Shown here: piece after piece, positions 5,860 to 59,639 of the stretch
How the letters are laid out: every line of letters begins with the position of its first letter
Position numbering within the stretch: the stretch's first letter is position 1
Assembly (NCBI RefSeq): GCF_036365525.1
Contig: NC_090372.1
Span: 16,827,630 to 16,891,629, forward strand
Direction of reading: 5' to 3'
Length of the DNA: 64,000 nt
Origin: Heterodontus francisci
Taxonomy: Eukaryota
Position numbers and translations under genes: made by a program
Notes under the pieces: generated by a model
Told to the model about the DNA's origin: nothing
Seen by the model: only the letters and a program-made list of their open reading frames with translations
Database searches by the model: none

Positions 5860-6150
5860 AGCATGCAGCAAGAACTGGATAGCATTCAGGTTTGGGTTCA
5901 TAAGTGGCAAGCAACATTCGTGCCACAGAAATGTAAGGCAATGACCATCTCCAATAAGAGAGAGTTTAACCACCTCCCCTTGGCTTTCAATGGTATTAGC
6001 ATCACCAAATTCCCCCACCATCAACATCCTGGGGGTTACCATTGATCAGAAACTCAACTAGACCAGCCATGGCTACTAGAGCAGGTCAGAGGCTGGGTAT
6101 TTTGTGGCAAGTGACTCACCTCCTAACTCCCCAAAGCCTCTCCACCATTA
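5860..6150 (+). mobile_element. LINE fragment, CR1/L2-group 'family B'
   Basis: ORF 5863-6045 (MQQELDSIQVWVHKWQATFVPQKCKAM) is homologous to ORF 20103-20546(-). Confidence 0.75.
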
Positions 6151-6156
6151 GTCCAG

Positions 6157-6518
6157 AAAGAGTGTTAATGGCAGAATAATGAGCAGCTGTGTCTACATGA
6201 AAAACAGACACATGGTTAAAAACAAAATAATAAAAAAAAGAAAAATATTTTAAAAAGGCCAGTCATGCTCTGAAATTATTGAACTCAATGTTCAGTCCGC
6301 AAGACTGTAGAGTGCCTAATCGAAAGATCATGTGCTGCTCCTCGAGCTTGCGTTGATGTTCACTGGAACACTGCAGCAGGCCAAGGACACAAATGTGGGC
6401 ATGAAAGCATGGTGGGTGTTGAAATTGGAAGCCACCGGAAGTTCGGGGTCATGCTTTCGGACTGAGTGGAGGTGTTCTGCAAAGGGGTCACCCAAGCTGC
6501 GTTTGGTCTCCCCAGTGT
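6157..6518 (-). mobile_element. Penelope-like element fragment (GIY-YIG C-terminus and 3' UTR)
   Basis: Homologous to 22914-23170 (gtcatgctctgaaattattgaactcaatgttcagtcc...gcgtttggtctcccc) and to 27360-27470. Confidence 0.8.
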
Positions 6519-6666
6519 TTTATTTTAGCACTAAAGTGGGAGTCTGATGGAGAGAGGCTGTTGTGCTACCTGGTTGGAAAGATTAGGATTTTATTGGGCA
6601 AGCTCCTGGTTGCAGTATTCTCATGGCTATCACTATTCTCATCTACTATTTTTATTTATGTTTTAG

Positions 6667-17400: not shown

Positions 17401-17464
17401 CTGATAGGGTGCGTGTGTTTATATCGAGCTGACAGTAATGCTCATAAATTCCATTAAAATTCTA

Positions 17465-17897
17465 ACAGTACTCAATAGTGGACAATATTCTATAGTGAAC
17501 AGTGTTCTATAGTGGATGATATTCTATAACAGATAGTGTTCAATAGAGGACAATGATCTATAGTGGATGGTATTCTATAGTGGACAGTATTCTATAGGGG
17601 ATGGTGTTCTATAGGGAACGGTATTCTATAGTGGACAGTATTCTATCGGGGACGATATTCTATAGTGAACAGTATTCTATAGTGGACAGTATTCTATAGT
17701 GGACAGTGTTCTATAGTGGACAGTGTTCTATAGTGGACAGTGTTCTATGGGGGACAGTATTCTGTGATGGACATTATTCTACAGTAGACAACGATCTACA
17801 GCGGACGATAGTCGATCGTATTCTATAGTGGAAGGTGTTTTGCAGTGAAAAGTATTCTATATTGGATGGTGATCTATAGTGGAGGGCATTCTATAGT
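17465..17897. repeat. 17-bp minisatellite (TATTCTATAGTGGACAG)n, roughly 25 units
   Basis: Head-to-tail repeats are directly visible, most homogeneous at 17670-17750. Confidence 0.9.
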
Positions 17898-21975: not shown

Positions 21976-22132
21976 CAATATCATGAGCTTGACCAATGCT
22001 TTTGATCTGCCAGAAACCAATCTGACCCAGGAGAACTATGATGAAGTCTTTCAGTACTTAAACAGTACCTATCCAGCAATCGTATCTGACCTGAAATTGA
22101 AGACCTGTGACCTGCAAACACTATTGAGTCAG
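21976..22132 (+). CDS. SLC6A19: SLC6A19 coding exon 8, 157 bp
   Basis: ttacAG acceptor, GTaaat donor. Encodes NIMSLTNAFDLPETNLTQENYDEVFQYLNSTYPAIVSDLKLKTCDLQTLLSQ (extended EL4 of the nutrient amino-acid transporter branch). Confidence 0.93.
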
Positions 22133-22454
22133 GTAAATGCCCTTAGCACAGACTATTTGTTCAAACTGCCTCAGCAGTGAATTCTTTAAATGCCCTCAGA
22201 TCCTTCTTACTTCTTTCTCAGCAGCTTTTTTTAGAAGGCAGATAAAAATGAGTATAGTCAAAACTAATGATCATGCACTTTCTATCATTCAATATTGCTG
22301 TTTTTCCATAAGTTCTGTCTCATTAAAGTAGTTTCTAAATGTAAATGCTGACGTAGTCAAAGATGTCTATTTTATGTAACATTAAAAGGCCACCAGTCAT
22401 AAGTGTATATGGAATATTAGCCACCCCTCACTAATGAGACAGCATTATTACCTT

Positions 22455-24632
22455 AAATAGAAACAAGAAATGCTGGAACCACTCAGCAGGTCTGGCAGCA
22501 TCTGTGGAAAGAGAAGCAGAGTTAACATTTCAGGTCAGTGACCCTTCTTCGGAACTGGCAAATATTAGAAATGTCAAAGGTTATAAGCAAGTGAGGCGGG
22601 GGTGGGGCAAGAGATAACAAAGGAGAAGGTGTAGTTTGGACCAGGCCACATAGCTGACCAAAAGGTCATGGAGCAAAGGCAAACAATATGCTAATGGTGT
22701 GTTGAAAGATAAAGCATTAGTACAGATAGGTTGTTAACGGACTGAAGATTGAACAGCAGCAAGTACAAACATGAAAAAAAAAACAGTGGGTAAGCAAACT
22801 GAAGAAGCTAAGATGAAATGAAGTAAGCATTAAAAAAAATTGTAAAAAATGCAAAAAAGAAATAAAGAAAAGAAAAAATTATAACTAAAAATAAAAGTAA
22901 AATGGGGGGCCCGTCATGCTCTGAAATTATTGAACTCAATGTTCAGTCCAGCAGGCTGTAGTGTGCCTAATCGGTAAATGAGATGCTGTTCCTTGAGCTT
23001 GCGTTGATGTTCACTGGAACACTGCAGCAAGCCCAGGATAGAGATGTGAGCATGAGAGCAGGGTGGAGTGTTGAAATGGCAAGCAACCAGAAGCACAGGG
23101 TCCTGCTTGTGGACTGAGCGGAGGTCTTCCGCAAAGTGGTCACCCAGTCTGCGTTTGGTCTCCCCAATGTAGAGGAGACCACATTGTGAGCAGCGAATAT
23201 AGTATACTACATTGAAAGAAGTCCAAGTAGATCGCTGCTTCACCTGAAAGGAGTGTTTGGGGCCTGGGATAGTGAGGAGAGAGGAGGTAAATGGGCAGGT
23301 ATTACACCTCCTGCGATTGCAGGGGAAGGTGCCATGGGACGGGGATGAGGTGGGGGGGGGGAGGGTAATGGAGGAGTGGACCAGGGTGTCGCGGAGGGAA
23401 CGATCCCTTCGGAATGCTGACAGGGGAAGGGAGGGGAAGATGCGTTTGGTAGTGGCATCACGCTGGAGGTGGCGGAAATGGCGGAGGATGACCCTTTGGA
23501 TATGGAGGCTGATGGGGTGGAAAGTGACGGTTCCACCCCATCAGCCTCCATATCCAAAGGATCATCCTCCGCCATTTCCGCCACCACCAGCGTGATGCCA
23601 CTACCAAACACATCTTCCCCTCCCTTCCCCTGTCAGCATTCCGAAGGATTCGTTCCCTCCGCGACACCCTGGTCCACTCCTCCATTACCCCCCAACATCT
23701 CATCCCCATTCCATGGCACCTTCCCCTGCAATCGCAGGAGGTGTAATACCTGCCCATTTACCTCCACTCTCCTCATTATCCAAGGCCCCAGACACTCCTT
23801 CCAGGTGAAGCAGTGATTTACTTGGACTTCTTTCAATGTAGTATACTGTATTCGTTGCTCACAATGTGGTCTCCTCTACAATGGGGAGACCAAATGCAGA
23901 CTGGGTGACCGCTTTGCGGAAGACCTCCGCTCAGTCCGCAAGCAGGACCCTGAGCTTCCGGTTGCTTGCCATTTCAACACTCCACCCTGCTCTCATGCTC
24001 ACATCTCTATCCTGGGCTTGCTGCAGTGTTCCAGTGAACATGAACGCAAGCTCGAGGAACAGCATCTCATTTACCGATTAGGCACACTACAGCCTGCTGG
24101 ACTGAAAATTGAGTTCAATAATTTCAGAGCATGATGGGCCCCCCATTTTACTTTTATTTTTAGTTATTATTTTTTCTTTGTTCTTTTTTTCTTTTTTGCA
24201 TTTTTTACAATTTTTTTAAATGTTTATTTCATTTCATCTTAGTTTGTTCAGTTTGCTTACCCACTGTTTTTTTTTTCATGTTTGTACTTGCTGCTGTTCA
24301 ATCTTCAGTCCGTTAACAACCTACCTGTACTAATGCTTTATCTTTCAACACACTATTAACATATTGTTTGCCTTTGCTCCATGACCTTTTGGTCAGCTAT
24401 GTGGCCTTGTCCAATCTACACCTTCTCCTTTGTTATCTCTTGCCCCACCCCCGCCTCACTTGCTTATAACCTTTGACATTTCTAATATTAGCCAGTTCCG
24501 AAGAAGGGTAACTGACCCGAAATGTTAACTCTGCTTCTCTTTCCACAGATGCTGCCAGACCTGCTGAGTGGTTCCAGCATTTCTTGTTTTTATTTCAGAT
24601 TTCCAGCATCTGCAGTATTTTGCTTTTATTAT
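22455..24632. mobile_element. Penelope-like retroelement inserted as a head-to-head inverted pair with 16-bp TSD
   Basis: Arms 22455-23522(-) and 23531-24595(+), extra tail 24596-24632. Both arms encode GTFPCNRRRCNTCP and a GIY-YIG motif NVVY(Y/C)IRCSQCGLLY(I/N)GETK. TSD AGCATTATTACCTTAA at 22441-22456 and 24633-24648. Confidence 0.92.
24494..24530 (+). ncRNA. Degenerate minimal hammerhead ribozyme motif in the PLE right arm (mirror copy at 22520-22556 on -)
   Basis: AGTT-CCGAAGA-A-GGGTA ACT GACCC-GAAA-TG-TT-AACT. The core has CCGA instead of CTGA and one stem II mismatch. Confidence 0.55.
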
Positions 24633-24710
24633 AGCATTATTACCTTAAGAGGTTCAGTTCCTGGAACAACATTCTAAGCTAAGGAAGCTGGTTAATGTCA
24701 TCAGCTCAGT

Positions 24711-26020
24711 TGAAGTGATTTATGACTTTAACCCCTTATAGGGACTAAACCAAATCAGGGGTACATCCCTATGAATCTCCTTAAATTATGTTCAAACCAG
24801 ACAAACTCTTATAGATACTTATTTGGGTCCAAAAAAAATTGAACTAGTTTTCCCTCAAAGAAAGAAAACTAACAGAGAATATTACCATTTTTCGGATAGC
24901 CTATTTTTAAATAACTATGGCTAAGTCATAAATATTGCAGATTTATAAGAGTCTGGGAAACTCTCTTCAATACGTATCTCTCCACTTTAAGAGACACAGT
25001 GGGGGTTCTTGTAGTTGTATACAGAATGCTACATGAGATGATTTATTAACTTTTATATATTTATTAAAGAATTTAACATGCATTACACTTTTAAGTGCAT
25101 AAGTATACTACAATATCAAAGATTACGAAGAGATGTAAAACATAATCTTATTTCTAAAATAGAATCCAAAAGTTCAACCTTAACAATGTTACAGCAAAAT
25201 ATCTTAGAATATCCATCAAAATTCAGAGTAAACTGTTACCTTAAATTCCCCGAGTAAACCTCCTGCTTAACAAAACAAAACAAAACACTCTCGGTTAAGA
25301 GCAGAATTCTCTTGTCACGCAGTCAGCCGTTCTGACCATAGGCTGAGAAGCATTGATGAGGAATTTCAATACCGCTGATTTTTCAATTCAAAACTCTTAT
25401 GTTTATACTGTTCCTAATCTATTAACTCATCTTTTGGAATGTAGGTGTTACCTTTCTGTGCGTGTTTTTCCTGCTTTCGTTATCCATATATGGTAATATC
25501 ATTAGCTACTTATTCCCGATTAATTATCTGCTGAGCGTTCCCTTCTCATGGTGTTGTGAGCTTTTATCTGGTCAAATGTTTGTAGTGTTTTATAGTAACA
25601 CTAAGACTTAACTTTATAAATATGTTTTATACTTAAAAGATTTTTAATTTAATTTGTGCAGTAATTGTTTTTGTAGGTAACATTCCATTTTGTGATTGAT
25701 CATCTGTGATGGTTCTTTGATGGTACCTTGCACCACCTCCTTAAGTCAGTCTGTCTATATCATTAATATTATCAACTAATTAGGATTATAGTTATCAGTA
25801 CAGACCATGTATAGCCTGTCTCATTTAACTTAAAAGGTGTTTCTGGTTCACATTCCATTGTAACAGGGATGTTCATGGATTTTTAACTCTGCCCTTAAAG
25901 GGAATTTCAGTGAGTCTTGGAAACTGACCATTTATTCAATCTTTAATTCTAAAAGGTATAATTTATTAATCATATCTAAATTCTACCTAATTAAGCCTAT
26001 TATACCTATATTTCATCACA
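24711..26020 (-). mobile_element. Probable solo LTR (ERV/Gypsy-like), 1310 bp
   Basis: TG...CA termini (minus strand TGTGATGAAA...AATCACTTCA), perfect 4-bp flanking duplication CAGT at 24707-24710 and 26021-26024. Minus-strand AATAAA near 25042-25065. AT-rich, no ORF. Confidence 0.5.
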
Positions 26021-26351
26021 CAGTGGCATCACTGAACCCTCACCCTTTAGTCAGTTTCTAAATGAGGCAAAGATAATCCTCATAAGTAAAGCCTTTGGTA
26101 TATTTTTTTCTGTGCTCTGCAACTCTTTTAAAGTTTCTCTATTAATCGCTATTAATTCTGCAGTCTCCTACAGAAACCAATGGTTGTCACTGTGCATTCA
26201 CAAGATGTATGTTGGCACACACCACAATGGCGATGTATGTCCATGGCTTTGTGGCTTAGTCTGGCTCTTTATCCAACCTGATTGGCACATAATCAAGTGC
26301 CGATGCCTCTTCACAAATCTTTTCAACTAACTCCAATCTCCTTTTATATAG

Positions 26352-26556
26352 GGCGTCGAAGGCACTGGGTTGGCCTTTATTGTCTTTACTGAAGCTATTA
26401 CAAAAATGCCCGTCTCTCCCTTATGGTCAATTTTGTTCTTCGTAATGCTATTCTGTCTTGGACTTTCTTCAATGTTTGGGAATATAGAAGGTGTGCTGGT
26501 ACCAATTGAAGATTTGAAACTCTTGCCAAAGAAGTTGCCCAAGGAACTTATTACTG
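26352..26556 (+). CDS. SLC6A19: SLC6A19 coding exon 9, 205 bp
   Basis: tatAG acceptor, GTaaac donor. Encodes [68 protein letters not shown] (TM8). Confidence 0.95.
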
Positions 26557-26699
26557 GTAAACACAAACCCTCCATTTACTTATCTATTGTTTCAGCTGTT
26601 AGTCTAGACCATAAAACAACTACTATTATCTCCTATAATAAAACAGAAAGTGCTGGAAATACTCAGCAGGTCTGGCAGCATCTGTAGAGAGAGAAGCAG

Positions 26700-26736
26700 A
26701 GTTAACGTTTCAAGTCAGCGACCCTTCATCAGAACT
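26700..26736 (-). ncRNA. Minimal hammerhead ribozyme motif (intact core) in PLE
   Basis: Minus strand reads AGTT-CTGATGA-A-GGGTC GCT GACTT-GAAA-CG-TT-AACT: 4-bp stem I, CUGAUGA and GAAA core, palindromic AACGTT in place of stem III. Confidence 0.7.
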
Positions 26737-26896
26737 GGCAAAGTTTAGAAAGGTTTTAAGCAAGTGAAGTGGGGGTGGCGGGGGGGGAGGGTGAAAGAGA
26801 ACAAAAGGGATGGTGTGCGATAGGGCAGAGGGCTGGAGAGTGTGCTAATGTTGTGCTGAAAGACAAAGCATTCATGCAGAGAGAGTGTTAATGACA

Positions 26897-27249
26897 GGGC
26901 GGCACAGTGGCGCAGTGGTTAGCACCGCAGCCTCACAGCTCCAGCGACCCAGGTTCAAATCCGGGTACTGCCTGTGTGGAGTTTGCAAGTTCTCCCTGTG
27001 TCTGCATGGGTTTCCTCCGGGTGCTCCGGTTTCCTCCCACATGCCAAAGACTTGCAGGTTGATAGGTAAATTGGCCATTATAAATTGCCCCTAGTGTAGG
27101 TAGGTGGTAGGGAAAATATAGGGACAGGTGGGGATGTGGTAGGAATATGGAATTAGTGTAGGATTAGTATAAATGGGTGGTTGATGGTCGGCACAGACTC
27201 GGTGGGCCGAAGGGCCTGTTTCAGTGCTGTATCTCTAAACTAAACTAAA
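26897..27249 (+). mobile_element. Full-length tRNA-derived V-SINE (HE1-like)
   Basis: A-box tggcgcagtggttagc, B-box ggttcaaatcc, V-domain, CR1-derived tail and (CTAAA)n end. Confidence 0.9.
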
Positions 27250-27484
27250 TAATGAACAGCTCTGTCCAAAAGCACAAACAAGGAAAACCAAATTTAAGGC
27301 AGGCACATGGTTAAAAAATAAGATAAAATAAAATGAAATAATAAAATAATAATAAAAAAGGGCCAGTCATGCTCTTAAATTATTGAACTCAATGTTCAGT
27401 CCGGAAGGCTGTAGAGTGCCTAATGGGAAAATGAGGTGCTGTTCCTCGAGCTTGCACTGATGTTCACTGGTACTATTATCTCCT

Positions 27485-38184: not shown

Positions 38185-39319
38185 GGGCTGAATTTTCCCG
38201 GTTGGGTTGCGATCTCAACGTCAGCTTCAATTCCAGGTTGTGAACCCAGAAGTGGCCATGGCAGGATGTCGCTGGCAAACTTCCTGGAGGCAACCAATTA
38301 AGAACCCACTTCTGGGAACCCGTCCAATTAAGGACAGTGGGTGGACTGGAGAGGTGGGCAGCCCAATAGGACAGCCTAAAACGATGTCCAGCCAGCAGTC
38401 CCATCGGGAGATGTGGACACTGCTGAGGCCGTCAGAAGACCGCATGGACGCCTCAAAATGGAGGTGCTCTCTGCAACATTGTAAAAATATTTTAAAAATA
38501 CACGTAGCTTCAGGCCATCATTGTAAAGGGGATCCCCTCCACAGGATGGCTTGCAACTGTGGCTGTTCCATCCCAGCAGGTCTGTACCAAGGTGATAGAG
38601 AGGAGGCGTCAATGGTCCACTCTGTCCTGCTGCTAGGAGGCCACCTCAAATTACCTGTGGGCTGTCGGCCTCAGCAGGATGCCCATCCGCTGTCGGGGAA
38701 GATGACAGCGTGGCATCACCTTTCCCCCAGTTGGCCCGTTAATGGGCCTGATTGGCTTCCTGCTGCTGCCAGGGCTGGAGGGGCGGGGGTGGTAGCCTCT
38801 GCCTCATTGACTCCATCTCCAGCAAGATCGCTTGGAGCCAGGAATGCATTGCGTAGCCGACCTGACCAGCAAGTTTCCAAAATAAAAAGAGAAAGTGCTG
38901 GAAATACTCAGCATGTCTGGCAGCATCTGTGGAGAGAGAAACAGACTTCATGCTTCAGGTCAGTGACCTTTCATCAGAACTGGCAAAGGTTAGAAATGTA
39001 ATAGGTTTTAAGCAAATAAAACGGGGGGTGGGGGAAAAGAGAACAAAAGAGAAGGTGTTGATAGGACAGAGGGCCAGAGAGATTAACTGACAAGGAGGTC
39101 ATGGGGCAAAGGCAAGAGAAAGCTCACTGTCCTGAAATGTCAACTCTGCTTCTCTCGTCACAGATGCTGCCAGACCTGCTGACTATTTCCAGCATTTTCT
39201 CTTTTTATTTCAGATTTCCAGCATCTACAGTATTTTGCTTTTATTTTAGAGCCATTTTCCAACTTTGCTCCAGGTCCCATCTCTTACCCTGCCGCTGAAG
39301 GACCAGGAAAATTCAGCCT
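38185..39319. mobile_element. MITE with ~18-bp TIRs (Harbinger-like), host to a mini Penelope insertion
   Basis: Left GGGCTGAATTTTCCCGGT, right ACCAGGAAAATTCAGCCT. No clear TSD. Confidence 0.55.
38881..39249. mobile_element. Miniature inverted-pair Penelope-like insertion
   Basis: Minus arm 38881-~39115, plus arm ~39116-39210, same tail 39211-39249 as at 24596. Degenerate 13-bp TSD AGCAAGTTTCCAA / AGCCATTTTCCAA. Confidence 0.8.
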
Positions 39320-41367: not shown

Positions 41368-41539
41368 ATGGCAGCAGAAAGGGAGAATGATTGTGTTATG
41401 GGTGAAAACACTGATGTTTTGATGGAGGAGAGGCCTAAGTGGGACAATAAGTTTCAGTATGTCCTGAGCTGTGTTGGATTTGCTGTGGGACTGGGAAACA
41501 TATGGAGGTTCCCATACCTTTGTCAGACTTATGGAGGTG
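41368..41539 (+). CDS. SLC6A18: SLC6A18 (B0AT3/XT2) coding exon 1
   Basis: ATG in good Kozak context (GAGATGG). Encodes [57 protein letters not shown], donor [16 protein letters not shown] and CQTYGGG fit SLC6A18 better than SLC6A19 (GFCVGLGNVW, CQSHGGG). The tandem position downstream of SLC6A19 matches vertebrate synteny. Confidence 0.88.
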
Positions 41540-43960
41540 GTGAGTATACAAGCACAAAGATGGAGGGGAAACTTGTATGCAGATTGCTATGGTTAACCTA
41601 TGTGAATTTCTCTGTATTTTGGAGTTTCTTTGGAAGTCACTGTGCAACGAGAGGGTGAACACGTACTACAGAAGACAACATTCCTTTGTTCACTGTTTTA
41701 GCAGAGGCACCTAAGCATTTAAAATAAGTAGTTTAACACCTGCATGGAAATAATATACAAAGGAATGTCATTAAAACAAATTCAATGTCTGTCTACCAAT
41801 ATATCGACAGTGATTGCTAAGTTTAAGGATCTTCAGTAATTTCTATGCTGGGTTTTTGTATGTTGAAATTACCAAAACACAAAGTTAATCATATTTCTTT
41901 TTCTATCCATCAGAAACACCTATCATTTTGACAATAGCATATGGTTTGGTTATACTAGAGTATGATTTTCAGCTTCCTCAATTGTTTTCCAGTCAGGATG
42001 TCACCGGGCTTCACAATAAGATAACTTGCATGAATTCCTTTTGCAAAAAATGTTGCTGTTGACAAGTTTGCCATCTAGCATAAGCTCGTTAATGTGTTAG
42101 TTACTGTCACACAGCATAATTTCATCCATTGGCATTTCAATGTGTTGTTAACCAGGGGATTAGTCAACACTTAGTTGCTAGTTTGTCAACAAGTTGCCCA
42201 GTCTGGTCAATCAACTCGAGAAAAAGTGACCGGATATGTGGTGGCATGGGGTTACTGTGTCTCAACATGTGAGTAAGCTGAGTTAACAGGTTTTAATTAT
42301 ATGAGTATGTTAGTTCATCTCTTTTCATACAATTACCCTCAGTATGTGATTGACTATTTCACCCTAGAAAGGATTTAGAAAAATAGAGTTATATTTAAAG
42401 GTTGTGTTTTAAAGCAAACTGTGTTCTCACAAATCATTTTTCAAAAGGCACTGAGATAAAAGAGGGTTAAAATACTAATGAGCTAGGTTTTAATTATGTT
42501 TCCTTATAGACCATAAATATTCCACAATTAATTAGCTGGTCTCATTGTTTCTGTAAATGACAAACACCCTACACTCAGTGTGTTGAGAGGAACCCATATC
42601 CTGAGTGCTTGCCTGGGGTAGCCTATCACAAACCTTCCTCTCAAGTTGTGAACATGGAGAGATAAAAGGCAGAGACAGAGACACAGACAATCAGCCCGGT
42701 TTTGTTGCCAGGGTGTTTTGCAAAAGCTCAGAAGGGTACAAAGAAGGAGGGTAGTTAGACTTTACTGGTCTAATTTTGACTTTGTGTGATATCAAATCAG
42801 TTGCTCTCAGTTTTTATTTCCAATGAAGTCAATGTTACATCCCTGGGTTACACTGTTATAGTCTGATATTGCACCAAGGTGAAGTAGTAAGTCCTGCACC
42901 ATTTTCAGTGCTATTGGGAGTCCCACATCAACAATGGAGGAGGGGTATTGTTGCAGCTCCTTGCCTTGGAACAAGCAGGCTGCGCCAGGCGAAGATCTAT
43001 TAAAAAAAAATGTAAAGCACCAATTTTGAGTTTGCCACTTTCCTAATTGCAATCAATCGCTCTGTGGTCAGTTGCAGTAGAGAAACCAGACTTGAGAGGG
43101 GAATGGGCCCTTCTTCTGCCAGAATCATGTCCTGGTGCATAAGCAAGCCAAGCCAGCTTCATGCAAGCTTACATAGCATTGGACAAGGGAAGAAAGTGGA
43201 ACTGGCAGGAATTCCAGTGGAAAGCACTATCCTGTAAATCTTGCATCTTCTTCTGTTGTGTTCATGGAAGGGGCATAAGAAGCACCTTCCCCACTTCCTC
43301 CTCCATGGTACCTATGCACATTGGTGCTCCCTAATTCCTCATTCACCTTTTCCCAGCATTACCTTTTTTTGAGTCTTTCCAGGCTACTTCCTGACTCATC
43401 CACATCACCAAGATTATCCTGATAAAAGTAATCAATTACACCACTGTGCGACTGTGACTGTGGCTCACTTTGTCCTCCTTGACCTTTCTGCCATCTTTGA
43501 CACGGTCAGCCACTCGGTTTTCCTCCACCACCTGTCCTTTTCAATCTCTGTCCACACTTGCTCTCATGGTTCCATTTCTGGTCCAGGTTGAAATATCCAA
43601 GGATGAGAAGTCCCGCAGCACAAAAATGTGACTATCAAAGTGTTACTTTGCCTCTTGTGCACCCAGTTGACTGTGGCAGCTTAAGTTAGGTTTTCAAAAT
43701 AGAATTTGACAAACACTAATAATTTCTGGCAGAATTCTTCTGGTCGACTGCCATAACTTTGTCAGAAGGCAGGTAGTAACCCGAGAGAAACACCAAATTT
43801 TGAAGAAATCCTACCCCAATAACACCTTTCCCACTGTCTACTTAAATCAGTTATGCACTTTCAGTTGACTCCAGGGTCAGGGGGATATAAAACACATACA
43901 GAGAAATGTTTGTTGTGTGAAGCTTGTGGAGGATTATTAACCAATGTGAATGAATAATTT

Positions 43961-44150
43961 ACTGGAGTATCAGCTTGGTAACATTCTTGTATCTGAGTCA
44001 GAAAATTCTGAGTCCAGGACTAACTCTGCTGAGGGTACTGTTATATTGAAATGTTAAATAAATAAACAAAGATCCCATCTGCCTGTTCCAGTAGTTCAGG
44101 TTAATGGTAGGAATCACAATATTTCAAGAGCAGAGGGTATTGGCCTGCCC
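43961..44150 (+). mobile_element. Degraded SINE, possibly Deu-domain (SacSINE1-like)
   Basis: tRNA-like head (tctgagtcagaa...gagtcc) followed by gatcccatctgcctgtt and tatttcaagagcagaggg, resembling my recollection of the Deu domain. A possible 3' fragment lies at 4290-4368(-). Confidence 0.3.
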
Positions 44151-44580
44151 ATGTTTGGAACAGTTGGGACTGTTTTCCTTGGAGAAGAGAAGGCTGAGAG
44201 ATGATTTGATAGAGGTATTCAAAATCATGAGGGGTCTGGACAGAGTAGATAGAGAGAAACTGTTACCATTGGTGGTAGGATACAGACCAAAGGATACCGA
44301 TTTAAGGTAACTGGCAAAAGAAGCAATGGTGACATGAGAGAAAACCTTTTTCACGCAGCAAGTGGTTAGGATCTGGAATGCACTACCCGAGAGTGTGGTG
44401 GAGGCGTGTATGATTGAGGCTTTCAAAAGGGAGTTGGATTATTACCTGAAAAGAAAGAATGTGCGGGCTACGGGAGAAGGCAGGGGAGTGGCACTAGTTG
44501 AATTTCTCCTTCAGAGAGCCAGTACAGTAATGATGGGCTGAATGGCCTCCTTCTGTGCTGTAACCATTCTATGATTCTAT
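44150..44580 (+). mobile_element. CR1 LINE 3' fragment
   Basis: LEQLGLFSLEKRRLRDDLIEVFKIMRG, then the tail gggctgaatggcctccttctgtgctgtaaccattctatgattcta. Confidence 0.85.
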
Positions 44581-45639
44581 TGGCCAGATAGATCTGCCAT
44601 TGGTGGAGCCTATGAACTCCTCTTAGTACCATCCACAACAAAATGGAAGATCTTTAAATGATTAAGCCTACAGATGCAAGATTGATGGGTTACTTGTAAC
44701 CCACAAAGTAGTTGAGTCTGATTTATTTCCAGTGCATTTACTGTTTTGAAAAGAAAAATACAACTTTCTTTTGTGCCTCACAGTGTAAAATATTAACTCA
44801 GTTCTACTCAATACAGCAAATGTTTAATCTTGTTCACTGTTTTTCTCACCATAAGAAAACAAGCCATTTAGTGCCACAACCTGACTTTGCCAGTATTGTG
44901 TTCACAGGGACCTGGCTCCTAGACGTATGCCAGAAGTGAGCGGTTATCAATAAAATGGGGGAACGGTGTGATCAATCTTTTTAAAATGCAGTAACATCTA
45001 AGTGTAAGCTTTTCAGAGCAGCCTTTAGTGTCTCAGGGCTGTAATGTTCCATTCTCCATTTGGCTAAAGACTCAAATTGGTCATTGTGCAGCTAAATAAC
45101 ACCCCCTCCCCACCCCAGGCAAACAGAGCACAGGATTTTCAGTCAGGAAGACCGACACATAAAGAACTATAGACGTTGCACCTTGTCCAAACTTCATCCA
45201 CACCAAGTCCCATAGCCCACCCTCCCTGTTTCATCTAAGCTCTTTCTGTCAGCCATGGAACATTACAAGTCCTGTCAAACCTTAACACATAAAAGTATCA
45301 AAATACATGGACTATGTAAGACCCTCAATTTATGTATTTTTGAAGAGCATGTAACCTAAAATGTTCAGTGAAACAATATGTAAATTCTTTGCTGAATTCA
45401 ATAAATGCATTTCCATGGAAAAGTAAACACAAGGGGATAAGAATTCCTCTATCTGCAGTGACATCCCACATTTGATAAGTATTCTTGAGTTTGATACTTC
45501 TACTGGAACAAACAATTCCCACTGCGTTCCTCCCGATCGGCTGCTGTAATTTTGGTAGAAGATCAGTGGAACCATAGAGAAATGGCACAAATACTTACAA
45601 ACAGCAGTAGACCAGGAGAGATGTTTAGTTTTTTAAATT

Positions 45640-46120
45640 ATTTGTTACCTGGATGTGGGAATCATTGACAAGCCCAGCATTTATTGACTATCTCTAGTTA
45701 CCCTTGAGAAGGTGATGGTCATCCGTCTTCTTGAACCCTGTAGTCTGTATGGTGAAGGGACTCTCACAATGCTGTTTAGTTTAGTTTAGAGATACAGCAC
45801 TGAAACAGGCCCTTCGGCCCACCGAGTCTGTGCCGACCATCAACCACCCATTTATACTAATCCTACACTAATTCCATATTCCTACCTCATCCCCACCTGT
45901 CCCTATATTTCCCTACCACCTACCTATACTAGGGGCAATTGCTAATGGCCAATTTACCTATCAACCTGCAAGTCTTTGGCATGTGGGAGGAAACCGGAGC
46001 ACCCGGAGGAAACCCATGCAGACACAGGGAGAACTTGCAAACTCCACACAGGCTGTTAGGTAGGGAGTTCCAGTATTTTGACCAAGTGGCAATGAAGGAA
46101 CAGCGATAGATGTCCAATTA
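45640..46120 (-). mobile_element. 'Family B' LINE 3' end containing a 5'-truncated V-SINE (45777-46051)
   Basis: The LINE sequence is interrupted at GCTGTT, which is duplicated at 45771-45776 and 46052-46057 around the SINE. Confidence 0.8.
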
Positions 46121-46440
46121 CAGGCCAGCAGTAGGCTAGTAGATATTTGTGAGGCCTGTAGGAGCACTCCTGCTCTATATTGGAGAGGCCTCCAATGGGC
46201 CTCTAAAGACCATGAGTTGGGGCTCTTAGCACTGAAGAAATGGAACTGAATGCATGAAGCATACTTTGCCCATTCTCTCTGAAAGCTGCAATCGGGGTCC
46301 TGCAACAGACATAAGACTTAAATTTGCATATCTGAAAAGCCTTCTGCCTGAAAGTTAATTCTAGTTGGTAAACAGCTGTCGAAGGCCCCTTCCAGATTTC
46401 AGGCGAGGAACAGACAGCCAGCCATTGCAAGGTTTTCCCC

Positions 46441-46678
46441 ATGTACTTATGTCTGAATAAGTATGTGAGTGTATGTGTGTATGCATGTATATGTGTATCT
46501 ATGTATGTATGCGTGTATATATGTGTCTATGCATTTGTGTGTCTAAGTATGTGTGTGTCTATGTGTGTGCATGTATGTCTGTGTGTGTATGCATGTGTAT
46601 CTATGTGTGTATGTGTATGTATGCCTATGTATATGTGAGTGTACTGTGTGTGTGTGTTCGTGTATGTGTGTATATATG
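46441..46678. repeat. Degenerate (TG/TA)n microsatellite
   Basis: Directly visible. Produces spurious MCV-rich ORFs. Confidence 0.9.
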
Positions 46679-47508
46679 GTGGTAACATTGCCCCTGCCTA
46701 CCTGGCAATGGGCCCGATTTTAACTTGCCCTATGTGAATGGGCAGCTAAAACGTCCTGTGTTACTTTACCCACTGAAAAACCGCCCAGATCCCCCCATTT
46801 TGAATATTAACAGAAACCTCTGGAAGGCGGCTAAGCCACCCATCCGCTGCCGAGGTGTCCTAAGTTGCAGGAGTTCAAAGACGTCATTGGGCTTTGACAG
46901 TGATGATAACTTTGGCCTCAGCAGGCATGGTGCTGCAGCTTTCCTGCTAGGTGAAGGCCAGCCTGAAATGATCAGAAAGCTATAGAGACTGTCCAAGTAA
47001 GTTTTTCTCTTTGCCTATAAGAATATTTTTGGCATTCACTGCCCCGGATCGAAAGCCTCCTTCACCTTTCCCTACTGGATTACAATTACCTGAGTGCCAA
47101 CAAGCAGCTAGGGACTGTGTGAATTTCTTGAGACCAGTTACTGCTTCCTGCCCACCTCCCACTCACTCTGGAAGGTTTATTGATGAGGCCCAGTGGTTTA
47201 CAGTGGTGTGGCCTCATTCTTCTATGGCCAGGCGGGAAAATAACTGAAAGCAGCAGTTTCCCACTGCAAACCCGCAGGCTGTTAAAGTACAACCCCCAAC
47301 CCCACCCCGGCCCACTGGTGCAGTGTGTATTTGTGCGCATGTTTGCATGTTTTTTGATACGTTCATGTTTGTATATGTGTGTGTAAGTGCGTGCGCGTCT
47401 GTTCCTGGGACACATTAAATTGTTGAAATCGTGGCAATCGTTTTGCAACTCGCCAAAGGATGACCCATTAATGATTTCCAAGTATATTGCAATTTCTAAA
47501 GAGATATA

Positions 47509-47694
47509 GGGCTAGAAATTCATCATGGATGGTGGTGCAAAATAGGCATTATTGGATTAACTGCCCGTTATAAGCAGAACCTGAGGTTTAATTCCATTGA
47601 CTGCAATGGAACTGAATGCCAGGCCGGGCATGTGATGGGTGGCCGATCAGATATCACTCATTTTGCACCACTGCCTGTGACCAATTTCTAGCCA
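47509..47694. mobile_element. Small palindromic MITE
   Basis: TIRs GGCTAGAAATT / AATTTCTAGCC, inner inverted pair gtggtgcaaaat / attttgcaccac, and central ttccattgactgcaatggaa. Confidence 0.65.
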
Positions 47695-48149
47695 TTTATG
47701 CTTTTCATTTGGTGTAATAAAAGCTTCTCAAGCTGAAGATATCATTGGAACGTTTCTCATTTTCCAGCTGCAGTGCCAATTGCAGTACAATAGGAACACG
47801 GGTTGACATCCAGTGAGATGCTTGCATCCAGTGGATATGGAAGACACCCCACCCTGCCCCCAGTTCCTCATCATCATATGTGTTGTGGGATCCAATAAAA
47901 CCCTCCCACCATAAAGAAGTGATCACCTTACCGGCTGGTATAAAGACAGTCACAGCCATGGATGGAGCATTCATGTTGTTCCTCCCTCAGACTCTTAATT
48001 AGCCTGTGAATATATTATTCTCCAAGGGAAGAGTGTGAAGATATGACAACAACAAAGACATTAACTTGGTTTCTTTTCAATAGATTCATAACTTCATTAA
48101 AGTGATGGACACAGAAATGTTGTACATGTCTGTTAAATGCTCATCTGTA

Positions 48150-49480
48150 ATATCATAGGAACATGGGACCAGGAGCAGGCCTTCAGTCCTTCGAGACTGT
48201 TCGGCCATTCAGTTAGATCGTAGTTGATCTGTATCTTAACTCCATTTGCCCAATTTGTTTCCATATCCTTTAATACCCTTACCGAATAAAAGCTGGGCAT
48301 TCTCAGTTTAGACACATGTCAGATAGTTGGGCAGTGAAGGGTAGAACTGCAGCCTAGTGTTTACACACTTATAATCATTGATTTACTGAGATACACATTA
48401 CACATATGCACCTCCAAACACAGTTTCAGTCTGGTACTATATATATAGGAGCACAAGTGACTCCCCAGTTAATGCCCTCTACCTAAATACAATTAAACAT
48501 CCAATTAATATACAATTAACAATCCCAAGCCTCAACAGCTTTTTGGGGCAGGGTGCTCCAGATTTCCACTACGCTATGTGTGAAAAAGTGCTTCCTGACG
48601 TCAACCCTGATTGGCCTAGCTCGAATTTTAAAGTTATGCCCCCTTGTTCTGGACTCCTAAGTTTCTCTCCATCTACCCTATCAAATCGTTTTATCATCTT
48701 ATACACCTCGATTTGATCATCCCTTAATTGATATTCGAGGGAATACAAGTCTAATCTATGCAACCTGTCCTCATAACTTAATGCTTTTAGCCCTAGTAAC
48801 ATTCTGGTGAATCTGAGCTGTACCTCCATCAAAGGCCAATAAATCCTTCTTAAAATGCAGAACCAGAGTGGATGCAGGACTCTACATGGGGTCTGACCAG
48901 AACTTTACATAGCTGTAATATAACTTTCACCCCTCTGTATTCCAGCCCCTTTGAATAAAAGCCAACTTTCCATTAGCTTTTTAAATTATTTTTTGTATCT
49001 GTCCACTACCTTTTAGTAATTTCTATACTTGGATTCCCAAATCCCTCTGCTCCTCCACAGTTCCCAGCTTCTTACCTTTTAGGTCCAAAGTGAATGACCT
49101 CACATTTTCCTACATTGAACTGCATTGCCACAATTTTGCCCACTCACGTAATCTATCAGTGGCCTTTTGCAACTTCCTGCTCCTATCTACACTATTTACT
49201 GTGCCACCTAACTTTGCGTCATCAGAAAACTTGGATATATAGCTCCCTATTCCTTCATCCATGTCATTTGTAAACATAGTGAAAAGTTGAGGCCCCAGTA
49301 CAGATCCCTGGGCGACACCATTAGTCACACTTATTGTGCATACTCATTATCCTTATTTTCCATCTTCTACTTCCTAACCAATTTCCTACCCATATTTATA
49401 GTTTGCCTCCAATTCCGTGCACTCTCATTTTTGTTAACTGTCTCCTGTGTGGAACCTGAGTGAATGCCTCCCTATGAATA
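48150..49480 (-). mobile_element. CR1 LINE 3' region (degraded)
   Basis: ORFs 48569-48832(-) and 49110-49328(-): GVAQGSVLGPQLF, SKFSDD, LSYEDRL. Confidence 0.8.
48317..48521 (-). mobile_element. Possible short solo LTR nested in CR1
   Basis: Interrupts the CR1 3' UTR. TG...CA ends, TATA-like ctatatatatag and minus-strand AGTAAA. No TSD found. Confidence 0.3.
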
Positions 49481-49889
49481 ATGTCCAATGGCACTCACTC
49501 ATCCAACAACAATTTCTGTCGTGGTATTTTCTTAGGCTGTTTGCATCACTGCATATCCACTGGCCCAATGAGCAACAATCAGATCCTGTGAACCCCAAGA
49601 GACAGCATACTGCCTTCTAGCCCTTCCATGTCTTAAAGATGGTACAAAGGGTGCAAGACTATTCTCTCCCCCTGTACCACCATCGCAACAGGTTGTGCGA
49701 CTGTGCTGAAGGAAGAGGAGGCATGGTTCTGAAATTGTGACCCGTCAGGCATTCCTAAACAGCTGCTGCACATTTCTTTATGTCTGCAATGAAGAAACAG
49801 CTTCCTCAATTCTTCAAATGAAAGCAGTAGGTTCCACAGCCACACCTGTCTGTTGCTGCACATCCTCAAAGACTGACCTCAGAGCCTAC

Positions 49890-50790
49890 ACTTAGGTTTG
49901 ATCTTTAGTAGAGGTGTTCAAAATTATAAGGATTTTGATAAGAGTAGATAGGGAGGAAATGTTTACACTGGCAGGATGGTTAATAACCAAAAGACACAGA
50001 TTTAAGAAAATCGGAACAAAGACAGAGGGAGAGATGAGGAGAATTCTTTTCACTCAGCAAGTTGCTCTGATCTGAAATGCATTGCCTGAAAGGGCAATGG
50101 AAGCAGATTCAATAATAACTTTCAAAAGGGAATTGAATAAATATTTTTTTTAAATGAAACATTTGCAGGGCCATGAGGAACGAACAGGGCAGTGGGACTA
50201 ATTGGAAAGCTCTTTCAGAGAGCCAGCATGGGCTTGATGGGTCGAATGGCCTCTTTCTCTGCTCTATGATTCTATGAATGAGTTGGACCGACATAAAAGA
50301 TGGGAGAAAAATGTCTCAGCTGGAGCATTGTGTTCAATTATTGGCACCACACTTTAGGAAGGATGTCAAGGCATTGGAGAGGGTGCAGAGCAGATTTGCT
50401 GGAGCAATACCAGAGATGAGGGACTTCAGTTATGTGAATGAAGACACTAGAGAAGCTGGGCTTGTTCTCCTTATAGCACAGAAGGTTAAGGGGAGATCAA
50501 ATAGAGGTGTTCAAAATTGTGGAGGGTTTTGATAGAATATGTAGGGAGAACCTGTTTCCACTGGCAAGAGGGTCGGTTAACCAGAATCAAAGAGGCGATG
50601 AGAGAATTTTTTTATACAACGCGTTATTTTATTTCTGGATTGCACTGCAGTGGAAGCAAATTCAATAGTAATTCAAAAGGAAATTTGATATGTACTTGAA
50701 CAGGAAAAGATTGCTGGGCTAGGGAGAAACAACAGGGGAGTGGGACTAATTTGATTGCTCTTTCAAAGAGTTGGCACAGGCACAATGAGC
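49890..50790 (+). mobile_element. Two tandem CR1 3' fragments
   Basis: QLEHCVQLLAPHFRKDVKALERVQ and two copies of a CR1-type 3' UTR (ggggagtgggactaatt...gctctttca). Confidence 0.7.
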
Positions 50791-50984
50791 CAATGATTCA
50801 ACAAAACATGAATTTAAAGCAAGTTCTGTGACTTAAATTCTCACTCTGAAGGAAGAGTTACAAGTTCACTCATAGACCCTCTCTCAGAGACACTGGTTCC
50901 CATAAGCAGACTGAGCATCTTCTGTTTAGCACCAGCATTGCCCAATATCGAATGATGCCATAGTAACAATAGCAGGCCCCTCAT

Positions 50985-52450
50985 ATCACAGAATCACAGA
51001 ATCACAGAATAATACAGTGCAGAAGAGGCCCTTCGGCCCATCGAGTCTGCACCGATGCATTAAAGACACCTGATCTGTCTACCTAATCCCGTTTGCCAGC
51101 ATTTGGCCCATAGCCTTGAATGTTATGACGTGCCAAGTGCTCATCCAGGTACTTTTTAAAGGATGTGAGGCAACCTGCCTCTACCACCCACCCAGGCAGT
51201 ACATTCCAGACCGTCACCACCCTCTGGGTAAAAAAGTTCTTCCTCAAATCCCCCTTAAACCTCCCGCCCCTCACCTAAAATTTGTGACCCCTCGTAACTG
51301 ACCCTTCAACTAAGGGGAACAGCTGCTCCCTATCCACCCTGTCCATGCCCCTCATAATCTTGTACACCTCGATCAGGTCACCCCTCAGTCTTCTCTGCTC
51401 CAGTGAAAACAACCCAAGCCTATCCAACCTCTCTTCATAGCTTAAATGTTCCCACCCACGCAACATCCTGGTGAATCGCCTCTGCACCCCCTCCAATGCA
51501 ATCACATCCTTCCTATAATGTGGCGACCAGAATTGCACACAGTACTCCAGCTGTGGCCTTACCAAAGTTCTGTACAACTCTAACATAACCTCCCTGCTTT
51601 TGTAATCTATGCCTCGATTGATAAAGGCAAGTGTCCTATATGCCTTTTTCACCACCCTATTAATCTGCCCTTCTGCCTTCAGAGATCTATGGACAAACAC
51701 ACCAAGGTCCCTTTGTTCCTCAGAACTTCCCAGTATCAGGCCATTCACTAAACTACTTCCGTGTCACATTCCTCCTTTCAAAGTGTATCACCTCACACTT
51801 TTCAGCGTTAAATTCCATCTGCCACTTTTCTGCCCATTTGACCATCCCATCTATATCTTCCTGTAACCTAAGACACTCCACCTCACTGTTAACCACTCGG
51901 CCAATCTTTGTGTCATCCGCGAACTTACTGATCCTACCCCTCACATAGTCATCTATGTCATTTATATAAATGACAAACAATAGGAGACCCAGCACAGATC
52001 CCTGTGGTACGCCACTGGACACTGGCTTCCAGTCACTAAAACAGCCGTCTGTCATCACTCTCTGTCTCCTACAACTAAGCCAATTTTGAATCCACCTTAT
52101 CAAGTTACCTTGTATCCCATGTGCATTTGCTTTCTTGATAAGTCTCCCATGTGGGACCTTGTCAAAGGCTTTGCTGAAATCCATGTAAACTACAGCAACT
52201 GCACTACCCTCATCTACACACCTGGTCACATGCTCAAAAAATTCAATCAAATTTGTTAGTCATGACCTCCCTCTGTCAAAGCCATGCTGACTATTCCTAA
52301 TCAAATTTTGCCTCTCCAAGTGGAGATAGATTCTCTCCTTCAGAATTTTCTCCAATAGTTTCCCTACCACTGACGTGAGACTCACTGGTCTGTAGTTCCC
52401 TGGCTTATCTCTACAACCTTTCTGAAATAGTGGGACCACATTAGCTGTTC
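50985..52450 (-). mobile_element. CR1 LINE 3' portion (RT)
   Basis: ORFs 52260-52481, 51753-52250 and 51275-51748(-) carry canonical CR1 RT motifs. The 3' tail reads (ATCACAGA)n on the + strand. Confidence 0.93.
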
Positions 52451-52454
52451 TCTC

Positions 52455-54426
52455 TGCGCTCATCTTGTCCATGCAGCCCACCTCCTACTCTCTCAACACT
52501 ATTTCCACTAAACCACTGACTGCCCAACTTCTCCTCCTGGCTCCCATGTTAACTGGCATTGTTAATGGTTCTCTCTGCTCAGGTTCTGACCCAATGTCCT
52601 TCAAATCTGCCTTCATCACCACTATCCTAAAAAAAACCTTGACCCCTCTATCCTAGCAAGCTACTGCTCCATCTCCAAACTCCCTTTCCGCTCCAAAGTC
52701 CTTGAATGTATTGTCACCTCCCAAATTGGTGCCCATCTTTCCCGGAACTGCATGTTTGAATCCCTTCAATCAGTACCAAAAACAATCTTATCAAAGTCAT
52801 AAATGACATCCTGTATGACTGTGACAAGGGTAATCTATCCCTCCTCATCCTTCTCGACCTGTCTGCAGCCTTTGACACAGTGACCACACCATCCTCTTCC
52901 AACATCTCTCCACTGTCGTCCAGTTGGGTGGAACTGCACTCGCCAGACAATTGCTGTCAATGGCTTTTCCTCCCATTGCCACGCAGTTATCTCTGGTGTC
53001 CCACAAGGATTGATCCTTGGACCCCTCTTTTTTCTCATCTACATGCTGCCCCTCAGCGACATCATCCGAATACACATCAGTTTCTCCATGTTTGCTGATG
53101 AGAACCAGCTCTACCTCATCACCACCTCTCTTGACTCCTCCACTGTCCAAATTATCAGACTGCTTATCCGACATCCAGCATTATAATGAGCAGAAATTTC
53201 CTTCAATTAAATATAGGGAAGACTGGAGCCATTGCCTTCAGTCCCTACCACAAACTCTGCTCCCTGGTCACCGATTCCATCCCTCTCTCTGGCAACTGTC
53301 TGAGGCTGAACCAGACTGTTCACAACCTGGAATGCAAAGGAGGAAGGTGGTGGCAGAGTGGTAATGTCACTGGACTAGTAATCCAGAGGCCCTGGCTAAT
53401 ACTCTGGGGAAATGGGTTCAAATCCCACCATGGCAGATAATGAAATTTGACTTCAATTAATAAAAAAAATCTGGGATTAAAAGCTAGTCTAATGATGGCC
53501 ATGAAACCATCGTCAATTGTCGTAAAAACCCATCTGGTTCACTATGCCCTTTAGGGAAGGAAATCTGCCATCCTTACCTCGTCTGGCCTACATGTGACTC
53601 CAGACCAACAGCAATGTGGTTGACTCTTAAATGGCCTAGCAAACCACCCAGTGGGGCAATAAATGCTGACCTAGTCAGTGATGCCCACATCCCACAAACA
53701 AATGAAAAAAAAAACTTCAGCGTCATATTTGACCTCAAGATAAGATTTATACCACATACCTATGACATCCCTAAGACCTCTATTGTAACATCGCCCATCT
53801 CCGCCCCTGCCTCAACTCTTCTGTTGCTGGCACCCTCATGCTTGCCTTTCTTATCTCCTGACATGACTATTCTAATGCACTCCTGGCCAGTCTCCCACTT
53901 TCTATTATTTGTAAAGTTGAGGTCCTCCTAAATTCTGCTGCATGTGCCCTAACTCACACCAAATGTCATTCACATATCAGCCCTTTGCTTGCTGACCTAC
54001 ACTGGCTCCAGGTTAAACAATGCATTGATTTTAAAATTCTCATTCTTATTTTCAAATTTCTCCATGGCCTAGCCCCTCCCTATGCCTGCAGTCTCCTCCA
54101 GCCCTACAACCCTCTGAGATATCTGCGCTCCTCTAATTCTGTCCTCTTGAGCATTCCCGATTTTAATCGCTCCACCATTGTTGCCGTGCCTTCAGCTGCC
54201 TGGACCCTAATCTCTGGAAACCCTCCTTAAACCTCTCCGCCTCTCTACCTTACTTTGCTCCTTTAAGACAATCCTTAAAATCTGCCTCCTTGACAAAGCT
54301 TTTGGTCACTTGACCTAATATCTCCTTCTGTGGCTCGGTGTCATACTTTATTTCCTAATGATTGTGTAGCACCTTGAGGCACTTTATTACATTAAATGCA
54401 CTATATAAATATAAGTTGTTGTTGTT
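52455..54426 (+). mobile_element. L2-clade LINE RT/3' region, interrupted by a SINE
   Basis: ctcgacctgtctgcagcctttgacac (LDLSAAFD), ggtgtcccacaagga (GVPQG), LQLNIGKT, LADLHWL, and an L2 tail aaatataagttgttgttgtt. Confidence 0.85.
53331..53713 (+). mobile_element. tRNA-derived SINE with 'family B' LINE 3' tail
   Basis: A-box tggcagagtggtaatg, B-box ggttcaaatccc. Tail gggcaataaatgctgacctagtcagtgatgcccacatccca-polyA matches the LINE end at 19681-19745. Confidence 0.8.
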
Positions 54427-55534
54427 CAGCAGTGGGGGATGTGGCCATCCAGTAGATTCTGTCAATTACAGGCGGTAGCCAAAAATGCCACCTGCCACCA
54501 TCTTTCAGGTGAAGCTCGCTTTTCTTCTCTTCCCCTTCACCAGTCAAGTTCAGCTTCTTTGAATTATTTAAATGTCAGTGTTTCTATCCGTTTTGCTTTT
54601 AGATTTTAAACATTTTGAATTGCCATTGTCACCAGCGTAAGCCAATGTCCGAGGTCGCTGCTACAAAAGTTTCAAGTTTTCCATTAGGTATTCTCTTGGG
54701 TACAGAACTAAAAATGTTTCAGGGTTAGCTTGTATTGTCCACTTGCTAACTTTAGGATGGTGTAACCCAGGGATATATCCTCTTGTGCGGGCTGAGCTAG
54801 TTATTTGTGTCTTTAACACATGTCCAACTTCAACCTCTTTGAAAGCAGACAGAAATAGTGCTTGATGAGACAAGAAAAGATACAAATTGTTCAGCTGCTG
54901 GCTTACAGTATGTGAACACACAGAGTAACAGTTATTTTTGGATTCACTTATTCCAACATGTATTAATGTAAAAATAAAATAATGAACAAGCTACCCAGAT
55001 CACCACGCCCATTTTCAGGGCTTCAACAAAGTAACTTCTAATTAGTTTCCTTCATTGTAACCTTCTTGTAACCTTTGCTGTGATTGACAATCTTCACAGC
55101 ATTCTGTTTTAAAAATCCTGACTGCCCTCGTTTCTGCATCTATTTTTTATGCCTCTCAGTTTTTAATCACAAGGGATCAGAGACTTCTCAACGCAATGGT
55201 TGTGAGGTGTTTATCCATTATGAAGACAAGCTAAGAAATTGCTCATTATTTACATGTAAGGAGAAGCAACATCAAATCTCAGCTCATTAGATTTTTAACC
55301 ACTTATCAGCTTGTGCCTTTTAAGTTACGAAAATACACTTTGCTTTTAAAGACAATTAAAAACAACTCTTTTTCCAAATACTTTCTGCAGTGAAAATGTT
55401 CAAAAAAAATCTCAAAATGTAACTGGGTCAAAGAGGTGAAGAATTGCAGAGAGAAAAGAAAGATGCATAAGTGTAAATAAGTAAAAGAAAACTGGCTGAA
55501 GTTCTTTCTTTGTTCTTACTGTTTGCGACCACAG

Positions 55535-55675
55535 GAGCCTTTTTAATTCCATACCTCATTGCACTGATCTTTGAGGGAATTCCACTACTCCACCTTGAAC
55601 TGGCAATCGGACAGCGTATCCGGAAAGGTAGTATCGGTGTCTGGAACTCCATTTCCCCTTACCTCGGAGGAGTCG
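55535..55675 (+). CDS. SLC6A18: SLC6A18 coding exon 2, 141 bp
   Basis: ccacAG acceptor, GTAAGG donor. Encodes [47 protein letters not shown]. Confidence 0.9.
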
Positions 55676-55759
55676 GTAAGGTCTTGCTTTTAACATTTAA
55701 AAAGAAATTAGGTGCTGTTTTTATTTAGCAAATGGACATCTTTGATGTCCTAAAAAATG

Positions 55760-59501: not shown

Positions 59502-59639
59502 GCATCGCCTCCATGCTGGTTTCCTTCCTCTTGGGGTTGTATTATAACACCATCCTTGCATGGGTACTCTGGTACTTTTTTCATTCATTCGAGGAACCAC
59601 TACCATGGAAAAATTGTCCTTTAAACAACAATAAAACAG
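59502..59639 (+). CDS. SLC6A18: SLC6A18 coding exon 3, 138 bp
   Basis: ttgcAG acceptor, GTtaaa donor. Encodes [46 protein letters not shown]. Same length and phase as the paralogous exon at 3261-3398. Confidence 0.9.

Follow-up and report, generated by a model that had tools for sequence, protein, structure and literature searches.

A head-to-head, doubly 5'-truncated Penelope-like insertion forming a palindrome in intron 8 of Heterodontus francisci slc6a19a

How does a roughly 2-kb palindrome whose centre is only a few bases long come to lie in an intron of a transporter gene, how were its two halves joined, and does it affect the gene that carries it? The palindrome lies in a 64 kb stretch of Heterodontus francisci DNA (the window, from whose first letter all positions are counted), in which the exons of the slc6a19a protein can be followed one after another along the plus strand between 3248 and 36398. 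Exon 8 of this B0AT1-like amino-acid transporter gene (21977–22132, plus strand, donor GT at 22133), whose number follows the layout of the human gene, has a translation that is 100% identical over 52 amino acids to H. francisci slc6a19a tandem duplicate 1. Exon 9 (26352–26557, plus strand, acceptor AG at 26350–26351) is placed by the exon map and by a contig match. The insertion makes up about half of intron 8 (22133–26351), and its left arm starts 324 nt past the exon 8 donor, where an earlier reading made from the sequence alone had put it at about 320 nt. The contigs of relatives at this locus reach exon 9 only (run X18) or hold no unique part of it (run X6, from a closer relative), and no empty site appeared among the pieces listed. 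The right flank of the insertion, 24635–26100, is itself a high-copy repeat with a summed contig depth of 5,000–70,000 in run X1 and no second copy within the window.

Global alignment of the left arm (22457–23522) with the right arm (23531–24593) gives matches in 1016 of 1068 columns, or 95.1% identity, with 45 substitutions (27 transitions and 18 transversions) and 7 gap columns. The sequence-only reading had drawn the arms at 22455–23522 and 23531–24595 around an 8-nt centre and had counted about nine substitutions in the outer ~345 bp; the centre is there, the count is exact (22460–22726), and only the description "near-perfect" overstates the identity of the whole. The arms lie head-to-head, with both 3' ends facing outward as that reading had noted, the left on the minus strand, antisense to the host gene, and the right on the plus strand, in the sense direction. 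A 16-bp direct repeat, exact at 22441–22456 and 24633–24648 (plus strand), brackets the whole unit; in a search of 40 x 40 boundary positions about 7e-7 exact 16-mer pairs are expected by chance, and this target-site duplication supports the proposal that both arms arrived in a single integration. The last two A of its left copy can also be read as the end of the left arm. In a self-comparison of the window, this insertion alone among the inverted repeats is both long and closely spaced.

The two arms are not equivalent at their ends. Beyond the right arm, 39 nt that are absent from the left (24594–24632, plus strand; 37 nt when the TT/AA shared with the target duplication is assigned to the arm) precede the second target copy. 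Contigs of the family terminate in large numbers at 24627–24630, which identifies this tail as the outer 3' end of the family. At the centre, AGTGACGG (23523–23530) separates the aligned arms, but contigs from other copies of the family (75 records) match up to 23527 and run on beyond that point into further element sequence. This assigns five of the eight spacer bases to the left arm (22457–23527) and leaves only the CGG at 23528–23530 as filler. Both arms are therefore truncated at their 5' ends within 5 nt of each other, as had been proposed, the left being the longer by these 5 nt; since the right has the tail, neither arm contains the other. We note that the tail can pair with sequence just upstream in the interval 24545–24612, where a 9-bp stem closes a loop around the inner end; in this modelled fold the stem could possibly link two start sites for reverse transcription.

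Both arms derive from the 3' end of a GIY-YIG Penelope-like element and are truncated on the 5' side. The left arm holds an ORF remnant (22914–23527, minus strand) that is open for about 200 codons and spans the C-terminal end of the reverse transcriptase (RT), a CX4CxxC linker and the GIY-YIG domain; its right-arm counterpart (23531–24134, plus strand) carries a frameshift and a stop. The closest relatives of the remnant are shark and ray proteins with 59–63% identity over about 200 amino acids, and these and the GIY-YIG end bear out the Penelope-like identity that the sequence-only reading had assigned. The match of the left ORF to the Pfam GIY-YIG family is weak (E 0.0036, 18 bits, under the cut-off of 22.6), but the relative P0005, 63% identical to it, clears that cut-off. 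In P0005, P0011 and P0015, RVT_1 precedes GIY-YIG; in the two arms the truncation has removed the RT core. The Naiad and Chlamys elements, which have an N-terminal endonuclease and no hammerhead, were rejected as candidates, since here the endonuclease ends the ORF and the relatives have the RT first.

Both arms have the CX4CxxC motif upstream of the nuclease, and a CX2-5CxxC motif within the linker that joins RT to endonuclease marks the Neptune and Nematis clades (PMC8557442). By its sequence the linker is of Neptune/Nematis type; the RT core, needed to fix the clade, is absent. Of the CCHH motif, the CxxC and the second H are kept in both arms; unlike in Neptune and Nematis, the first H is D. 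Of 47 homologues, 40 keep that H, as does the window copy at 6218–6518, so the D is a loss at the level of this copy. A pattern scan finds a decayed minimal hammerhead motif in the left arm (22524–22552, minus strand, core CCGAAGA versus CUGANGA) and in the right arm (24498–24526, plus strand); two older window copies have retained the canonical core CTGATGA. A minimal hammerhead is a general feature of Penelope-like elements (PMC6155905). The arms give no Rfam hammerhead match up to an E value of 5, and the hammerhead fold of the arm motif is not its predicted minimum-energy fold. All 28 Rfam matches to microRNA precursor families at the centre are under the gathering threshold and reflect hairpin shape only, and these families were rejected.

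This is a very abundant family, with a summed depth of contigs over the arm of 0.3–7.5 million in run X1, against 10–12 on unique sequence, a measure that is not a copy number. It is also present in DNA runs of two other species, and a 25-base family motif has no match in the metagenome contigs. Host gene models in a ray and in the horn shark (P0008, P0010 and P0014, annotated as DIPK1C, mucin-2 and HHAT isoforms) contain pieces of the endonuclease, which suggests exonisation or annotation error.

The configuration itself is a known one. An inverted, 5'-truncated copy adjoining the 5' end, with a 30–40-bp tail at one end only, is typical of Penelope-like elements (PMC8557442), and in rotifers head-to-head inverted units have target duplications and a one-sided tail (PMC3846280); all these features are present in the slc6a19a insertion. 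The rarity that the sequence-only reading implied is thus not borne out, the form being the described norm and the window holding a second such unit. Like the standard unit (Craig et al. 2021, PMC8557442; Arkhipova et al. 2013, PMC3846280), the insertion is 5'-truncated and head-to-head, with a hammerhead-like motif, here decayed, near the 3' end. It differs in having no full-length body or tandem pLTR, both arms being cut to almost the same 1.07 kb, and differs from the rotifer cases in its 16-bp duplication (8–10 bp in those; PMC3846280) and in the lack of a palindrome at the junction. What lies in slc6a19a is thus the decayed remnant of a shark retroelement that is abundant, arranged in a way already described, and particular only in its length and symmetry. 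In a literature search that reached few subscription papers, none of the few papers listed for sharks, Heterodontus or chondrichthyans describes such a Penelope structure by title or start of abstract.

The second unit in the window is an older one of a related subfamily (38868–39262). Its tail-less inverted arm (38880–39115, 236 nt) and tail-bearing direct arm (39117–39249, 133 nt) are unequal, with the same tail polarity as in the slc6a19a insertion, and it is flanked by a probable 13-bp target duplication with two mismatches that ends in AA beside the tail-less arm. There are two further copies. A single, tail-less minus-strand copy in intron 9 (26635–27470, unit 26621–27484) lies within a 14-bp target duplication that has no mismatch, keeps the canonical hammerhead core, and is split by a younger ~345-bp repeat at about 26907–27252. 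A minus-strand fragment in intron 3 (6140–6530) covers the endonuclease end; its 3' part seems to be cut by another repeat (5863–6148), and beyond its 5' break lies a short T-rich run resembling the 3' end of the element.

How, then, were two such arms placed back to back at one target? Each target strand, read 5' to 3', runs directly into the antisense strand of the element, which allows either arm to be first-strand cDNA primed at one of two nicks 16 nt apart. Two primings are indicated because neither arm contains the other and the unit at 38880–39249 repeats the polarity with unequal arms. Priming of this kind has been described for the Poseidon element of Anolis carolinensis, whose protein in vitro cuts and extends both strands of a target that is AT-rich, as is the one here, with starts at two RNA sites on either side of the tail (Frangieh et al. 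2024, PMC11167929); two such sites predict one arm with a tail and one without. Poseidon belongs to a different clade from the element here, which has a Neptune/Nematis-type linker. We regard it as likely that the insertion arose in one integration in which both cut target strands primed on one element RNA, and that it has been a neutral intronic passenger since.

In the route that we prefer, the GIY-YIG endonuclease would nick the two strands 16 nt apart, as judged from the duplication. By analogy with the anole element, the bottom-strand end would then prime at the outer RNA start site and give the tail-bearing right arm, and the top-strand end would prime at the inner site, through a 2-base AA/UU match, and give the tail-less left arm. 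Both cDNAs would end close to one position, for which a broken 5' end of a single RNA is the simplest cause, and the polymerase would jump from the end of one cDNA to the end of the other, adding 1–3 bases. Since then each arm has accumulated its own mutations, in a pattern with no sign of selection. That one RNA with a broken 5' end was copied twice and closed by a template jump is the route we put first, with confidence that falls somewhat short of even. In run X5, a contig of another copy follows the inverted arm as far as 23526 and passes there to the 3' end of the element at 24567, a weak hint that the break at 23526 may be a recurrent truncation point, which would weaken the argument for one RNA.

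Alternatively, the tail-less top-strand cDNA may have folded back and copied itself within the same single event, the tail end then coming from a short second cDNA. A hairpin turn gives 5' ends as close as those observed, within 5 nt, a coincidence that two independent truncations of exponential length would produce with a probability of only 0.0003–0.004 (for assumed mean lengths of 200–800), and from 23531 onward the right arm could be a copy of the left. On the other hand, the 8-nt centre has no paired primer stem and is an open loop in the predicted fold, the missing tail on the left arm requires a second priming anyway, and the outer 178 nt of the arms, with only 4 differing sites, show no excess of differences that would mark a second template. 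We hold this fold-back to be possible, on the doubtful side; at the joining step, the finished insertion does not distinguish it from the template jump. It is improbable that the element instead primed itself on antisense RNA and was inserted as a hairpin intermediate. Such self-priming has been proposed for the head-to-head inverted structures of rotifer Penelope elements (PMC3846280), but that proposal rests on palindromes at the junction, of which the 8-nt centre has none, and target-primed extension of both strands in vitro uses sense RNA (PMC11167929).

Extending the preferred route, in which a paired enzyme would copy one RNA twice, on both strands from two start sites, and join the cDNAs, to symmetric kilobase palindromes of this kind is a tentative step that we take with still more reserve. 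If it is correct, their arms are born identical and shark genomes contain thousands of LTR-like clocks, and the palindromes give a direct read-out of the joining step in Penelope retrotransposition.

The differences between the arms bear on whether one template or two were copied. Against the other window copies, the run contigs and 60 homologous proteins, 29 of the 45 arm differences could be polarised, the remaining 16 not being polarisable, and they are balanced between the arms (13 derived on the left and 16 on the right, p 0.71); DNA and protein do not conflict at any of the six sites judged by both. Both arms also share rare states. At 24319 they have A, where C accounts for 99% of the summed contig depth in run X1 (a variant comparison in which six arm positions are among those listed), and in both arms W stands for a C that is kept in 41 of the 47 homologues covering the site, as D does for the conserved H described above. 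In the ORF there are 22 non-synonymous and 3 synonymous differences (pN 0.050, pS 0.022, Fisher p 0.23, with nine codons around the frameshift excluded). Columns in CpG context differ more often than others (10 of 52 versus 35 of 1016), and the differences are spread evenly along the arms (p 0.63). From sequence comparison, this fits arms that were copied from one template and then decayed neutrally, each with damaging mutations of its own.

A pair derived from two RNAs, or from two successive insertions, would have inherited part of its 4.4% divergence and would be no clock. The lopsided unit at 38880–39249 shows that arms can end independently, G/C bases are retained more often on the left arm (24 versus 9 sites), and the variants common to both arms may be subfamily marks rather than private to this insertion. 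Between two active lineages, however, most differences should be silent, and the lack of a synonymous excess makes a two-lineage origin unlikely; one target duplication surrounds both arms, whose 5' ends lie within 5 nt, both have lost the conserved C and H, and their private changes are balanced. We therefore rate two RNAs or two insertions as low as antisense self-priming. Two other candidate influences on the divergence were considered and rejected: selection for mismatches near the centre, where the adjoining 30 bp are perfectly matched and the differences are even, and gene conversion between the arms, whose longest perfect run, 82 nt, is not unusual at this divergence.

The arms differ by a K2P distance of 0.044 +/- 0.007. 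The proposal that this divergence could date the insertion as LTR divergence does holds in so far as it behaves like neutral change after insertion, and fails for years, for which there is no usable rate. The pedigree rate of the epaulette shark is 7e-10 per generation (CI 1.4–14.1e-10; PMC10587355), and dividing K2P by twice this rate gives 16–156 million generations, which at face value looks too old, and no age in years is claimed.

Does the palindrome act on slc6a19a? The ~1-kb hairpin anticipated from the sequence alone is predicted to be very stable in the pre-mRNA: the central 1000 nt fold at -1024 kcal/mol (z -68 against 20 shuffles), and the modelled duplex has 1016 Watson-Crick pairs, 18 G-U pairs and 27 mismatches. 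The hammerhead on the sense strand is mutated and, in this model, would be buried in the duplex. The sequence-only reading had put the RNA forward as a potential substrate of ADAR, Dicer or dsRNA sensors and the DNA as a possible source of a cruciform, and all of these remain candidate consequences. ADAR editing of the hairpin is plausible by analogy with other inverted repeats, and in Xenopus tropicalis the Penelope repeats rank with the families that are edited most (PMC10636886). With the preferred origin, the pre-mRNA would fold in this way and probably be edited, and no effect on the spliced message would be expected. In run X5, guessed to be RNA, a 4450-nt contig agrees with exon 9 at every base over contig positions 1191–1398, a position that fits a normally spliced message with exons 1–8 before it and the insertion absent; this reading rests on one contig and gives no splicing efficiency.

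A hairpin retained to regulate slc6a19a, whether it acted by editing, by small RNAs, by nuclear retention or by a change in splicing, would draw on this long predicted duplex and its start 324 nt from the donor. We consider such a role quite improbable. Of the 45 changes, 27 are mismatches in the pre-mRNA strand, evenly spread, with no sign of selection for pairing; the message contig fits normal splicing; and A>G places number 20 in the run guessed to be RNA and 20 in a DNA run, a count confounded by other copies. There are, moreover, other inverted repeat pairs in slc6a19a. One intronic pair (361–860 and 1694–2181), 89% identical over about 500 bp and 834 bp apart, gives the pre-mRNA further possible duplexes.

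A fold-back chimeric read or assembly artefact is the least probable explanation of all, to be dismissed even though such structures trouble assemblies (PMC8557442) and no junction-spanning reads, nor any contig crossing the centre or either target junction, are among the pieces listed for four contig sets (mapped over 23480–26600, that is, the right arm, centre and right flank), because rare shared variants and private mutations on both arms argue against it, the arms differ at 45 sites with a mutation-like spectrum and by indels where a chimeric read would have given 100% identity, the tail is on one arm only, and an exact target duplication brackets the unit.

The single locus matters little in itself and has modest value as a clean example of mechanism and clock; a regulatory role for slc6a19a would matter more, if true. 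The polarity of tail and no tail, with the 5-nt offset of the arms, constrains how inverted Penelope insertions close, and the balanced, unselected divergence suggests that such pairs could date insertions. The locus also shows that a ~2 kb palindrome with a centre of few bases can persist to 4.4% divergence in a vertebrate intron. In yeast, lowering the identity of inverted Alus with a 12-bp spacer from 100% to 94% lowers rearrangements about 15-fold (PMC10164571), so the present unit should be less fragile than at its birth. Inverted Alu pairs are like it in being long intronic inverted repeats with a short spacer and the potential for a cruciform and double-stranded RNA (PMC10164571, PMC10636886), but they result from two insertions, whereas the arms here would have been made together and identical from the start, and the pair is three times as long.

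Elsewhere in the window, a second SLC6 paralogue lies downstream of slc6a19a on the same strand, with exons within 41422–59638 and 66–71% identity to slc6a19a over three exons, and two degenerate tandem-repeat tracts are found at 17464–17897 and 46450–46678.
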